From Eledone cirrhosa (Eukaryota): DNA of 64,000 nucleotides. Position 1 is the first letter of the stretch, and every line of letters begins with the position of its first letter. The position numbers were made by a program, and so were the translations under genes. The stretch lies in assembly GCA_964016885.1 (NCBI GenBank), contig OZ024740.1:265732001-265796000 (forward strand). The letters are read 5' to 3'. Below the pieces are notes generated by a model. That model was not told where the DNA came from. It was given only the letters and a program-made list of their open reading frames with translations, and did not search any database. Positions 4,453 through 35,355 of the stretch are shown here, in pieces.

Positions 4453-4628
4453 AACGAAGGAAATGTGGTAAGGAACCAGGTGGACCATAACGCACCAAAG
4501 TACTCAATACTTAGGGTAGTAGAGTGGGTAATAGGAACGAGTAGGACCCCGACGGCTGCGCTTTTTTAGTCCAGAATTAGCCGTCGAAAGGGCTTGAGCT
4601 CAGCCGTCGGGGTCCTACTCGTTCCTAT
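4453..4628. mobile_element. Asymmetric palindrome of the same PLE 3' end in (TA)n
   Basis: ataggaacgagtaggaccccgacggctg / cagccgtcggggtcctactcgttcctat inverted pair, with an unpaired tail of about 75 nt on the left. Confidence 0.85.
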
Positions 4629-4708
4629 ATATATATATATATATATATATATATATATATAATAAAACATATGTATATATATATGTGTGTGTGTGTGTGT
4701 GTGCGTGT

Positions 4709-4795
4709 TCATTTGATTAAGGCTAAATAGTGAGTCTAGTCACTTTGGAGTTTCACCAGAGTAACAAGACACACAATTTAGCCTTAATAAAATGA
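4709..4795. repeat. Imperfect hairpin with arms of about 40 bp between microsatellites
   Basis: tcatttgattaaggctaaatagtgagtctagtcactttgg / ccagagtaacaagacacacaatttagccttaataaaatga. Confidence 0.8.
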
Positions 4796-7293
4796 TTATA
4801 TAAATATATATACTTATATATATATATATATATATATATATATATATATATATATATATATATATATATATATATGCAATAGGTATAAGTAGTTGACGAG
4901 CGAGATAAATATTTATATACTGTATATATATATTCAGCCTTCAGTCTGATATGAACATTCTCCTTATTTTTACATAGTTCGATTTATTTTTTTGTTGTTT
5001 GCTATACTGTATTTATTTTCTATTTGAAAGCACACTGGTAGAGTGCTTTTAGCAATAGTCATATTTTTTCAATGTGAATTTGTTTTACATGATTCACTGT
5101 TCATTGATCAGGCCTGGCTTAACTCCTCTTTGATGTGACGGGTGCAGGGTTTGCTGCTACGTGAAGTTTTTACTGCTACAACCACTTCCCACTAGCAACT
5201 GAGCGTGTGGCATGCCATTTTTAATTTTCCTTCACAGGGAGGCGAACTTCCACTCAAGGACCGACCCACGCCTGATTACGTAATATGTACTATCACTACC
5301 TAATATCCTGCACATAGCTGTACCTTCAGTGCACTGCCATAAGATTGGGACCACAGAAACTGTTGCAGCAGTCCGGATACCTTAACAACTTGCCGACACG
5401 AACTCATCTTCCTCCCTGATTAACGAAAGTGTTCACTCTGGCCAGCAGGGTTCAATTTTAAATATACGAACTTAATTGATCATTGAGTGAGGAAACGACC
5501 GAAGCTATGTGCATACTAATCGACTTGCTTCATCTCTTAATTCATTATATATATAAATATATATATATATATATATATATATATATATATATATATATAT
5601 ATATATATATATATATATATATATAGAATAGAGAGAGAGAGAGAGAGAGAGAGAGAGGAAAAGGTATGACCCCGACGACAGAGCTCAAGTTTCGACGGCT
5701 ATTTCTGGACTATAAATAGATAGATAAGTTGACGGGACTAGCATAAGGTTTCTCTGCTAATACCGGTTGCATCTCATATATATATATATATATATATATA
5801 TATATATATATATATATATATATATATATATATATATATATATATTTATATATATATTTATATATATGTATGTATATATACATATATATATATATTCATA
5901 TATGTATATATACACACGCACACATATATATATATATATGTCTCTGTCTGGGAGTGTGTGTGTGTGTGTGTGTGTGTGTGTGTGTGTGTGTGTGTGTGTG
6001 TGTGTGTGTGTGTGTGTGTGTGTGTGTGTGTGTGTGTGTGTGTGTGTGTGTGTGTGTGTGTGTGTGTGTGTGTGTGTGTGTGTGTGTGTGTGTGTGTGTG
6101 TGTGTGTGTGTGTGTGTGTCTAGGGAGAAAACCAATAAGAAAAACAATACACAATGTGGTACAGATTGATAATATTAGTTTAACGCTCAGATGAGATAAG
6201 AAGCCAATACATAACGTTCCAGCCTACACCATCCGGCATATGATAAAGTGAGGTCTTCTTAATGCGTATGAGACTGTTGCTGTTTCAGGTTGTTGTCGTT
6301 CGCCTGATCGAGATTAGAGATCAATGATTAGTTTCTAAGTAGATACCTGTAGGAAAGTAGGATAAAAACGAATGTAGGAAAATCGTTTACATACAGTGTC
6401 TATATATTTGCTAAAATATATATGTGCTATAGTAAAGGTTAATAAGTTAGTTTCAAGACATGAAAGGTGTGCTTTTAAGAGTTCTTATAATAAAGACAGA
6501 TCGATGCCTATGGGAGGTAGGTTGGTTTGGAGGCACACAGTTCGTGAGTTCATTGCAGCGGGGTAGGAAGTGTGTAAACAAAAAATAAATATGTATATAT
6601 TTATATATTCATGTATAAAATTAATCCTAAAACTTTCGTTACATTTGCGTAAGAATCGGCTTCAGTAAATTACAAGCTACAGTAATTTATTCATAAGTAT
6701 AACTCACTGACTACAAAAGTTTAATGTTTAAATGAAATATAGAATTAACAATCCTAAGGTTTTCGCCTCCTCAAATGGATACAAAGGTAAACCAAATGTG
6801 TTATTTTAAAATACAGCTCTGTTTAGCTTACCATCATCCATCAATTATTTTGACGGAAATGAGAAGGATGCAATATTACCTGGAGATGAAATTAAGTTAT
6901 ACTCGGCAACAGGTGCAGGTGATGTTTTTCTAAACTCATGTAGACAGGCTTTCTTGTATATATTGAACTCTCCCAAAAAGTTAAGAAATCCATTATATTA
7001 TCTATCGATTAAAATGGGAACATAAGTTATGTCAAATATTGCAGGTCTACATCTTTGTCTTCACACATCAGCAAAGGAAACATATCCCGTTCTTTGCAGA
7101 ACGTTACTTGCTAACTGATACGAACCTCAAGATGTTTTACATTACTAAGACAATATATATATATATAAATATAATAAAGATTCATAGACTCTGCTAACGT
7201 ATTGAGTAACTTTTTTAATTGTGGTCACGTCCCGATATGCATTGGGAACTAAACCTTATATATATATATATATATATATATATATATATATAT

Positions 7294-7802
7294 GATCCCA
7301 AAGTACAAGTTAACCGATTATAATTCACTTCATTTATTCATAATCGCTTTTATATATATTTCGGTGATAACCGTTATGCAATAGTTATGACCTCATCAGG
7401 CAGCTAGAGATTTAGTAGAAAAAACAGAAAGAAGAAATAAAAATTACTTATGTTGTTTCGATCTATTGATATGTCACTTGTACTTTAAGAAAGCAACACA
7501 AAATATCTGCCCGGTGCATATCAATCAATCGAAACAACAGAAGTAATTTTTATTTCTTCTTCCCTGTTTTTCTGTTTTTCTGTTCAACTTCTAGCTGACA
7601 GATGAGGATATATCTATTGTATAACGACTATCACGGAAATATATATAACAGCAAATATGAATAAATGAAGTGAATTATAACACGTTGACTTGTACTTCAT
7701 GATTATAATGATACTGCGGAGTAAACAGACCCACTTGTGTACTTCGCCGTGTGATCTACATTGCATACAAACGTGTCACTGATAAACTAACGCATACTTC
7801 AA
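7294..7802. mobile_element. Asymmetric palindromic PLE-end insertion with two HHR motifs (7346-7404 minus; 7594-7652 plus, decayed)
   Basis: Arms about 7301-7473 and 7517-7697, tail 7698-7802 similar to the 11025-11110 tail. Minus HHR reads GCTGC CTGATGA GGTCATAACT..GGTTATCACC GAAA TATATA TA. Confidence 0.8.
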
Positions 7803-33272: not shown

Positions 33273-34264
33273 TATATGTGTCTCTGTCTGTGTGTGTGTG
33301 TGTGTGTGTGTGTGTGTGTGTGTGTGTGTGTGTGTGTGTGTGTGTGTGTGTGTGTGTGTGTGTGTGTGTGTGTGTGTGTGTGTGTGTGTGCGCGCGTGCG
33401 TGTGTGCGTGTGTGTGTGTGCGTGTGTGTGTACGTATGAGTGTATGTAAAACTACATTGTCCAGTATGGCAGGCATGTTTGTTTTTAATACAGCTGGGTG
33501 AGATTTAAGGGATATTTACTTGTTACTTCTTGCAAATTGAACAGCTGTGTAGAGACGACGTATTTGAATGCTACTGTGAATCACCTTAAAATACATACTA
33601 ACAATGTTATCTGATTAATCTAAAGTACGAGAAGTGCCGATTAATTCAAACTAATAAACGCCATTCGTACATCTGCATTATTAACATACAATTCGATATA
33701 TATCGCTACCGCTTATATATATCATGTATCTGCGAGTATGTGTATATGTGTGTATAGGTGGTTGGTTGTGTCTTCATAAGTACCTGTGTCTGTCTGTGTA
33801 AGCGGATAAAAACAAAGAGAATGAATATTCTTTCGAAGTTAATCATTTAGTTCTTCACAGCTGAGCGTCTCACCACTTACAATACATCTAGTGGGTGAAA
33901 AATGGTTCATGATAACCATTCACGTTTTTTTTATGTTTGAAGAACTGTACATGGTGAGAAATCCAACTAATGAAAGACATATCAGCTTCGAACGAACAAG
34001 CAAAACCCAAAACTCATTTCATGAGATTTGGGCTGCTTTGCTAATTAACAAGTCTGATGAGCAGATCAGGCTGGAGCCGGTTCTATAGATCCTGGGCCAC
34101 CCCTCTGTAAAACAGTCGTGACTGTGTATAATCAATAAAGAACTTAATGTGAAACATTCCGCCATTGCATAGGGTGCTGATCGTGGTTCCTTCCTCAGTA
34201 AACCACGAATCACTGAACCACCTATTATATAAATATATATGTGTGCATGTGTGTGTGTGTGTGT

Positions 34265-34862
34265 GTGTTTATCCCTATCATATATTCATTGTATTACACG
34301 GCTCAGAAATATTCCTTTCTTTGAGCTAATTAATTGTAAAAGACTATTTGAGTTTATAACTCTATATATAATATTCTCAGCTCCATCTGTTGAGCTAATT
34401 TTTTAGTCCCATAAAACCGGCTGCTACTTTTAGCGGCACGAGTATAGGACGCGTTAGACGCTGTGACACATGTGCGTTAAAAAACACATCTCTCCCAGTC
34501 TTCTTTGAAGTGAAACTTACCAATTTCTGGATACCCGCAGAAGAGCACAGAAATAGGAACTTTCACTTAATCGTTGCGAAACAAATTTGAAGTTTAAAAT
34601 TTAAATTTGTCCAGGTATCACGGCTTTTGCCAATATAGGTTTGTTTTTATTGATTTATTATTTTAAATCGAGACAGGCAAACCGTATTATTTTAATTGGT
34701 ATTTTTCAATCTAGCTAACTTGGTCATTTGCAATACGAACACATGTATACTTGTATCAGTGTTTATCCCTATCATATATTCATTTGTATTACACGGTTCA
34801 GAAATATTCCTTTCTTTGAGCTAATTAATTGTAAAAGACTATTTGAGTTTATAACTCGATAT
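34265..34862. repeat. Direct repeats of about 100 bp, about 495 bp apart (partial tandem unit) between microsatellites
   Basis: gtgtttatccctatcatatattc...gagtttataactc occurs at about 34265 and 34759. Confidence 0.8.
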
Positions 34863-34940
34863 ATAATATATATATATATATATATATATATATATATATA
34901 TATATATATATATATATATATATATATATATATATATATA

Positions 34941-35355
34941 TGTAAAAGTTCTATTTAAATTGTTGGGATACAACAAGCAAATATTTTTATAACTGATATA
35001 AAGCACTCAACAAATATTTGGAGTAAAAATACGATATTAACAAATGGAAACTATATTTATAAAACCATATTTATTTCATTATACATATTTCAAGGACACC
35101 AAGTTAAATTATGGTGTGCTTTCATCAGATAAAATATAATATAGATCAGTTTTATAAATAAATATTGACATACCCTTAAAGAATGCAACAGCAATGGTTG
35201 CATTCTTTAAGGGTATGTCAATATTTATTTATAAAACTGATCGATATTATATTTTATCTGATGAAAGCACACCATAATTTAACTTGGTGTCCTTGAAATA
35301 TGTATAATGAAATAAATATGGTTGTATAAATATAGTTTCCATTTGTTAATATCGT
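34941..35355. mobile_element. Near-perfect asymmetric palindrome (arms of about 160 bp) with two intact HHRs: 35072-35136 minus and 35250-35314 plus
   Basis: Centre gaatgcaac agcaatg gttgcattc. Both HHRs match 14480-14544. Tail of about 90 nt on the left, (TA)n on both sides. Confidence 0.93.

Follow-up and report, generated by a model that had tools for sequence, protein, structure and literature searches.

Head-to-head insertions of Penelope-like and retrozyme-like elements in (TA)n tracts of Eledone cirrhosa combine one tailed and one tail-less end

Penelope-like elements (PLEs) that encode an endonuclease (EN+) leave inverted pseudo-long terminal repeats (pLTRs), one of them with a tail, a structure for which the available part of Arkhipova 2013 (PMC3846280) favours self-priming on an antisense template. 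An inverted 5' copy, a tail often present at one end only and (TA)n targets, including those of the Hydra clade, are described in the portion of Craig 2021 (PMC8557442) drawn on here, while the corresponding portion of Frangieh 2024 (PMC11167929) reports that a PLE protein acting in vitro nicks both target strands and extends each of them, with two internal start sites bounding the tail, and offers a dimer model; both PMC8557442 and PMC11167929 name the origin of inverted pLTRs and tails as an open question. Pairs of hammerhead ribozymes on opposite strands, 100-700 bp apart, were reported for PLEs in PMC4209133, and a PLE origin of retrozymes has been argued from phylogeny in a preprint (10.64898/2026.07.22.740005). 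Here we analyzed a window of 64 kb from Eledone cirrhosa (contig OZ024740.1, positions 265,732,001 to 265,796,000 of the forward strand), in which an original prediction had listed nine fold-back insertions in (TA)n, together with related loci elsewhere in the 3.0-Gb assembly GCA_964016885.1. The insertions fell into seven families (A-G), and nearly every two-ended copy joined one end at a family-specific proximal, tail-less endpoint (P) to one at a family-specific distal endpoint, the tail end (D).

These insertions resemble the inverted-pLTR insertions of EN+ PLEs, as described in the available parts of PMC3846280 and PMC8557442, in having an inverted, 5'-truncated copy by the 5' end, a head-to-head junction, a tail at one end, a target duplication, and a pLTR with TATA box and initiator. 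They differ in their tails (63-105 nt, within the originally estimated range of about 60-105 nt, vs. 30-40 nt there), in being mostly palindromes of 130-500 bp that lack an open reading frame (ORF), and in their very high number. The architecture itself is known. The PLE literature searched yielded no count of the one-of-each rule, and neither arms that fail to nest, nor a length for the target duplication, nor the same signature on a retrozyme-like family turned up there; two older reviews outside that search may already describe the pairing.

A total of 279 loci, drawn from nine sets and representing the seven families, were classified by end type; copies of families G and F were gathered by sequence patterns, their words being too common for DNA search. 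Both fixed endpoints were recognized in all seven families. Of the loci, 131 were P+D, one had two P ends and none two D ends. Only a single end could be recognised in 104, one end lay off both sites in a further 30, 12 repeated an event already listed and one was unscored. P+D pairs thus made up 131 of 132 classifiable two-ended loci, and 74 of 75 in the sets collected without using the tail. Among the first 100 position-ordered matches to the family A site, 66 formed 33 head-to-head pairs within 500 bp (spacing 44-488 bp), all of them P+D, 32 as scored from the listing and the 33rd on reading (p ~4e-9 for 32/33). The expectation that the short arm is the one lacking a tail did not hold: in ORF-bearing copies the long arm was P-ended in 10/19 cases and D-ended in 9/19, and the tail is therefore not tied to arm length. 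Two "tailed-tailed" calls (L323 and L329) from a random sample of 40 evenly spaced 10-kb stretches of the genome were rejected as inner tandem units of family C. Two pairs of ORF-bearing insertions with an identical junction at different places (L131/L162 and L146/L147) are segmental or assembly duplicates.

After removal of 2 extra duplicates, 129 P+D events were used to compare the arms. The further 5' reach belonged to the P arm in 57 events and to the D arm in 43, and was equal in 29. In those 57 events the P arm has 5' sequence that is missing from the D arm, and the D arm has the tail; neither arm contains the other, which argues against self-copying. Under self-priming, as proposed in PMC3846280 and, for the tail, in the available part of PMC8557442, one cDNA (or antisense RNA) would snap back and copy itself, and asymmetric resolution of the hairpin by the endonuclease would then give only one of the ends a tail. 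Such a template must contain its self-copy, yet the arms of those 57 events are not nested, and in three family G loci (L168, L175 and L181), where the tailed cDNA ends within the tail, they do not overlap at all. Near-symmetric centres, as expected of a snap-back, occurred in the 29 equal events, mostly of family A, where arm lengths were correlated (rho 0.54), and the arms share variants, as a self-copy would; the symmetric centres, however, sit at a promoter-like site where two independent cDNAs would both run off the RNA. For non-nested events self-priming is largely refuted, and as a general explanation it is unlikely.

The two arms of a locus appear to derive from closely related templates. 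Subfamily letters matched between arms in 31/33 pairs (49% expected), variants seen twice lay in one and the same locus 20 times (2.4 expected), and arms were closer within than between loci in families A, D, G, E and F according to permutation. A fixed T/G difference between family A arms, at first a hint of two templates, was rejected as an artefact of rare-word ascertainment, given that a tail-free query returned T/T pairs and another single-arm variant. Two separate RNAs, one per protein subunit and each priming one target end, would yield the same architecture. They would account for two cDNAs covering the same stretch of RNA, which on a single molecule requires strand displacement, for the 2/33 pairs with discordant letters, and for family C, which showed no within-locus excess of similarity (1007/5000 permutations). 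The 31 concordant pairs, however, would require both RNAs to come from one source locus, and two RNAs alone leave the near-absence of same-site end pairs unexplained, so that this alternative is considered quite improbable.

Junction coordinates were unique in 124 of the 129 events; by BLAST ends, 56 junctions showed overlap, 14 were blunt and 59 carried inserts. Palindrome centres vary, as the original prediction held, but they also cluster. Miniature inverted-repeat transposable elements (MITEs) are symmetric terminal inverted repeats copied as a unit, a definition that these asymmetric ends and unique junctions do not fit. MITE-like amplification of a few master palindromes with erosion of the centre, or a later deletion between TA repeats that takes away one tail, could draw on the clustered centres and on some recurring family A junction coordinates (4 groups, 9/63 loci); nearly all junction coordinates are nevertheless unique, the same ends flank ORF-bearing copies, and a tailed-tailed precursor was not found even among copies with 99% arm identity, which makes this explanation very improbable. 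Least probable of all, to a degree that we regard as negligible, is an assembly or library artefact caused by fold-back chimeric reads beside TA tracts. Two window palindromes were compared with reads and contigs of sequencing runs and no record bridged a junction; against an artefact, the arms differ by 1-14%, the fixed ends are family-specific and accompanied by target duplications, and tail-less ends running into (TA)n recur in contigs of four runs and in raw Illumina reads.

Fixed endpoints and P+D pairing agree with priming from both target ends at two fixed sites, as originally proposed, with a correction regarding their position: one site had been placed at the RNA 3' end, but the sequence continues past the tail end, into the ORF in family A and into the following tandem unit in family C, with TAT as its first letters each time, and both start sites are therefore internal. 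The predicted AT-rich internal site was recovered. Beyond P, 2-5 alternating A/T letters come next in the RNA of families A, B, C, D, E and F. This TA microhomology at the start sites is suggestive rather than strong. Exact target duplications of 13-17 bp in imperfect TA tracts were detected in 6/129 events (36 informative), compared with 0.69 in shuffled pairings (maximum 3). The 5' ends clustered at -61..-53 in family A (25/52), on an initiator-like TCAGT that a TATA-like box precedes by 29 nt, at -150..-142 behind a TATA box in family F (20/37), and at -232..-224 in family D (14/40); clusters in B and E were not used, as they may mirror the ends of the reference copies.

Taken together, these patterns are probably the product of twin priming from two fixed internal sites. 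In this mechanism the element protein would cut one strand of a (TA)n tract and, about 14 bp away, the other, and the two exposed 3' ends would start reverse transcription on one common RNA, each at a different one of the fixed internal sites, where 2-5 nt would pair. A protein dimer sitting on the tail might hold one reverse transcriptase (RT) on each side of it, the tail being the RNA stretch between the two start sites. Each cDNA would end without regard to the other, in many cases where the RNA begins close to the pLTR promoter, and the two would be joined through microhomology or end joining; the many short palindromes could arise where both RTs run off a transcript starting at that promoter. 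Together, the one-of-each pairing, the arms that do not nest and the duplicated target lead to one prediction, namely anti-correlated start sites on the two strands of a product. LINE-1 twin priming likewise uses one RNA for both target ends and joins the cDNAs through microhomology, but it starts from the poly(A) end and a variable internal site, resulting in an inversion whose parts hardly overlap. In the present insertions the two sites are fixed and lie near each other, and the product is therefore a palindrome.

Several observations weigh against twin priming as the account of these insertions. It is not the sole outcome, given the 104/279 loci with one recognisable end and the 30 more with a stray end (although at least five of the one-ended loci have, by eye, a partner arm of 6-17 nt), and two tail-less ends were seen by eye at L033, with an upstream insertion, and at L213 and L322, both complex. 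Continuation past the tail end is known for A and C only, the G reference copy has no microhomology at P (other G copies show TAT), and the microhomology is short in AT-rich RNAs, with a chance of 0.08-0.37 per site. Evidence of target duplication consists of the 6 exact cases only, and junction coordinates, being BLAST ends, are approximate. Shared arm variants could also be explained by one source locus supplying two RNAs, or by gene conversion acting on the arms. Family C, by permutation, had no within-locus excess of similarity. Finally, PAc, the Poseidon element of Anolis studied in PMC11167929, shares nicking and extension of both strands, an AT-rich target, two internal RT starts bounding the tail, passage of RT through an uncut hammerhead and the dimer model, yet in the available part of that paper its start site has no target homology and bulk products show no strand difference, in contrast to the 2-5 nt TA microhomology and the different site for each end observed here.

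In the window, which has 31% G+C and a (TA)n share of 14% (3% across 400 kb of evenly spaced stretches), the insertions were located as follows.

4454..4625, minus strand: fold-back of family A (putative Hydra-type PLE); tail of 80 nt at 4454-4533, tailed arm 4534-4562, tail-less arm 4565-4625.
7294..7800, plus strand: family B fold-back; left arm tail-less, right arm tailed, tail about 97 nt; predicted hammerhead core 7399-7359 on the minus strand.
9285..10729, minus strand: family C, two opposed arms of tandem 437-nt non-coding hammerhead units (retrozyme-like); tailed end 9285, tail-less end ~10729; predicted hammerhead cores 9597-9573 (minus), 10051-10075 (plus) and 10483-10507 (plus).
10743..11012, minus strand: fold-back of an older subfamily of family A; tail 10743-10823, tailed arm short, tail-less arm longer.
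11023..11575, minus strand: family D fold-back; tail of 95 nt, arms 11107-11338 and 11347-11579; predicted hammerhead core 11465-11501 (plus).
12139..12545, minus strand: family C fold-back; tail of 63 nt, arms ending before the hammerhead core.
16330..16620, plus strand: family E fold-back; tail cut by the next element at +52; predicted hammerhead core 16401-16386 (minus).
16599..18537, plus strand: 5'-truncated family A PLE; inverted ORF piece 16599-16757, disrupted ORF end with GIY-YIG 16730-17529, then 3' untranslated region, pLTR and tail.
28383..30834, minus strand: fold-back of family F (putative Neptune-type); tail of 64 nt, arms 28446-28999 and 30288-30834; endonuclease end in the loop (151-aa frame from 30311).
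31432..31608, plus strand: extra family A fold-back; left end tail-less, right tail of 81 nt.
34942..35354, minus strand: family G fold-back; tail of 90 nt, arms 35032-35189 and 35197-35354 (98.7%); predicted hammerhead cores in both arms, 35128-35088 (minus) and 35258-35298 (plus).

Inverted arms were present at all nine loci of the original prediction (identity 86-99%), and the layout (TA)n-arm-arm-tail-(TA)n was recovered at eight of them (4454, 7294, 9285, 10743, 11023, 12139, 28383 and 34942). The ninth, at 16346, agreed only in part, as a family A element cuts its tail at +52 and the tail end lacks (TA)n; the fold-back at 31432 had been missed. The short-arm stops quoted for two families occur in the sequence, "cctat" at 4625 and 11012 and "tacttatat" at 10729 and 12545. 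At least six unrelated families had been proposed, which agrees with the seven found here, as B (7294) and D (11023) are related (72% over 213 nt), leaving six groups. Tail lengths by family were 80 (A), 97 (B), 63 (C), 95 (D), 105 (E), 64 (F) and 89 nt (G). At 4454 and 10743 the further 5' reach belongs to the tail-less arm and not to the tailed one, and the loop at 28383 (1,288 nt) includes the GIY-YIG endonuclease end. At 16599-16757, an inverted mid-ORF piece (family A aa 493-545) abuts a direct copy beginning at aa 533; this inversion was primed elsewhere than at the two fixed sites. Between 9285 and 11575, three insertions of different families lie back to back in common (TA)n tracts; each one leaves flanking TA on both sides as a new target.

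The fold-backs are 5'-truncated insertions of PLEs, both Hydra-type and Neptune-type, and of a retrozyme-like tandem unit. Their PLE origin is supported by a full-length family A copy, L132, which has the same ends and is made up, in order, of a tail-less arm in inverted orientation, a pLTR with tail, a frame of 801 aa in which RT-like and GIY-YIG motifs were recognised by eye, and a second pLTR with tail. The short forms are truncation products, and not the separate class of coding-free elements originally suggested. In L132, L159 and other ORF loci, the pLTRs have the form of partial tandems with an inverted 5' copy and an optional tail. Atlas neighbours of the family A protein scored 0.96-0.99 and included some clusters with GIY-YIG in 26-36% of members, whereas Pfam and PDB searches returned no match. 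Its motifs comprise DKT, RWR in place of RWK (L124), a CxCx5C linker intact in L124 and L151, and CxxC and CxH around E and N; CCHH is absent, and the element has a hammerhead and (TA)n targets. All of these are listed for the Hydra clade in the available part of PMC8557442 and would place family A there, by motifs only; its unit of ~3.6 kb exceeds the <3 kb generally given for that clade. Family F appears to be Neptune-type, judging by a CX2-5CxxC linker ahead of GIY-YIG with CCHH (151-aa frame, minus strand), a linker that also occurs in Nematis.

Family C can be described as putatively retrozyme-like, since it is made up of non-coding tandem repeats (437 nt, longest ATG frame 68 aa, up to five units in L209), each with a predicted type I hammerhead core. 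It shares these features with the non-LTR (long terminal repeat) retrozymes of the preprint 10.64898/2026.07.22.740005, as far as the consulted part describes them, but is known here from DNA sequence and differs in that its insertions carry the inverted tailed/tail-less PLE signature in (TA)n. This signature provides structural evidence for mobilisation by PLE proteins. Families B, D, E and G, with ORFs tied to none, are tentatively assigned to the PLE group by their hammerhead cores and the same end structure. Type I cores were predicted by pattern in A (the U3-A8 variant described in PMC4209133), B, C, D, E and G, and by eye only in F; no hammerhead was among the Rfam matches listed (150 of 187), only microRNA models below gathering scores. 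Divergent ribozymes, as attributed to the fold-backs, are predicted at some loci (34942 and 9285), but at 4454 and 12139 the arms end before the core.

Other PLE-related sequences were detected in the window: a disrupted Neptune-type PLE with RT and GIY-YIG (36250-38720, minus strand; inverted duplication 36595-36894), a second Hydra-like ORF remnant with ~40% identity to family A (59183-60720), and, at 12620-14673, a GIY-YIG end (12620-13000) with a tailed family G copy downstream (14416-14673). Elsewhere in the genome, sequences at L317:479-1905, L317:8457-8828, L322:3170-3690, L333:9620-9983, L340:2106-2536, L340:2916-3081 and L341:1227-1325 are probably further, unnamed PLE families, in which by eye one arm adjoins (TA)n and TA lies 27-140 nt past the other. 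The remaining features of the window include further inverted repeats with no clear tailed/tail-less layout (8030-8319, 39597-40065, 40180-41473 and 43767-43878), a dispersed SINE-like (short interspersed element) repeat (4290-4437, 35579-35762, 38727-38915 and 42215-42333), with the 4454 insertion at the AT-rich end of one copy, a minus-strand non-LTR retrotransposon at 21600-26300 (endonuclease-like and RT-like frames of 521 and 513 aa, by eye), a decayed gene resembling a Tc1/mariner transposase by eye (32000-33270), very long degenerate TA arrays (46600-59200 and 63400-64000) and 200 N.

Exact genomic pattern matches numbered 40,918 for family A, 10,699 for G and 1,963 for F, as against 0 for reversed controls, and the family patterns are therefore not due to chance. 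The random sample contained 13 head-to-head pairs of the seven families, which extrapolates to roughly 0.5-1.7 x 10^5 genome-wide. With a criterion near that given in the available part of PMC5625713, 813 of 23,800 windows were able to pair nearby, 410 of them through microsatellites, 95 through the seven families and 308 through other sequences. The seven families thus represent about a quarter of the non-microsatellite pairing potential, at the level of DNA; the role as a major source of long dsRNA hairpins, originally suggested for the fold-backs, is hypothetical. Where transcription reads through an insertion, its hairpin would likely conceal the ribozyme fold.

These fold-backs are easily taken for MITEs or microRNA precursors, which constitutes a risk for annotation. 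The octopus shows the strongest hyper-editing signal along with an unexplained excess of near-perfect inverted repeats, according to the part of PMC5625713 considered here, and the fold-back insertions are a concrete candidate for that excess. More speculatively, and with considerable doubt, it may be that in all EN+ PLE clades one dimeric complex, nicking ~14 bp apart, forces the two target ends to different fixed start sites of one RNA, and that the resulting ~10^5 near-perfect hairpins in this genome, including the retrozyme ones, would mostly come from short promoter-proximal templates and form a main substrate of octopus adenosine-to-inosine hyper-editing.

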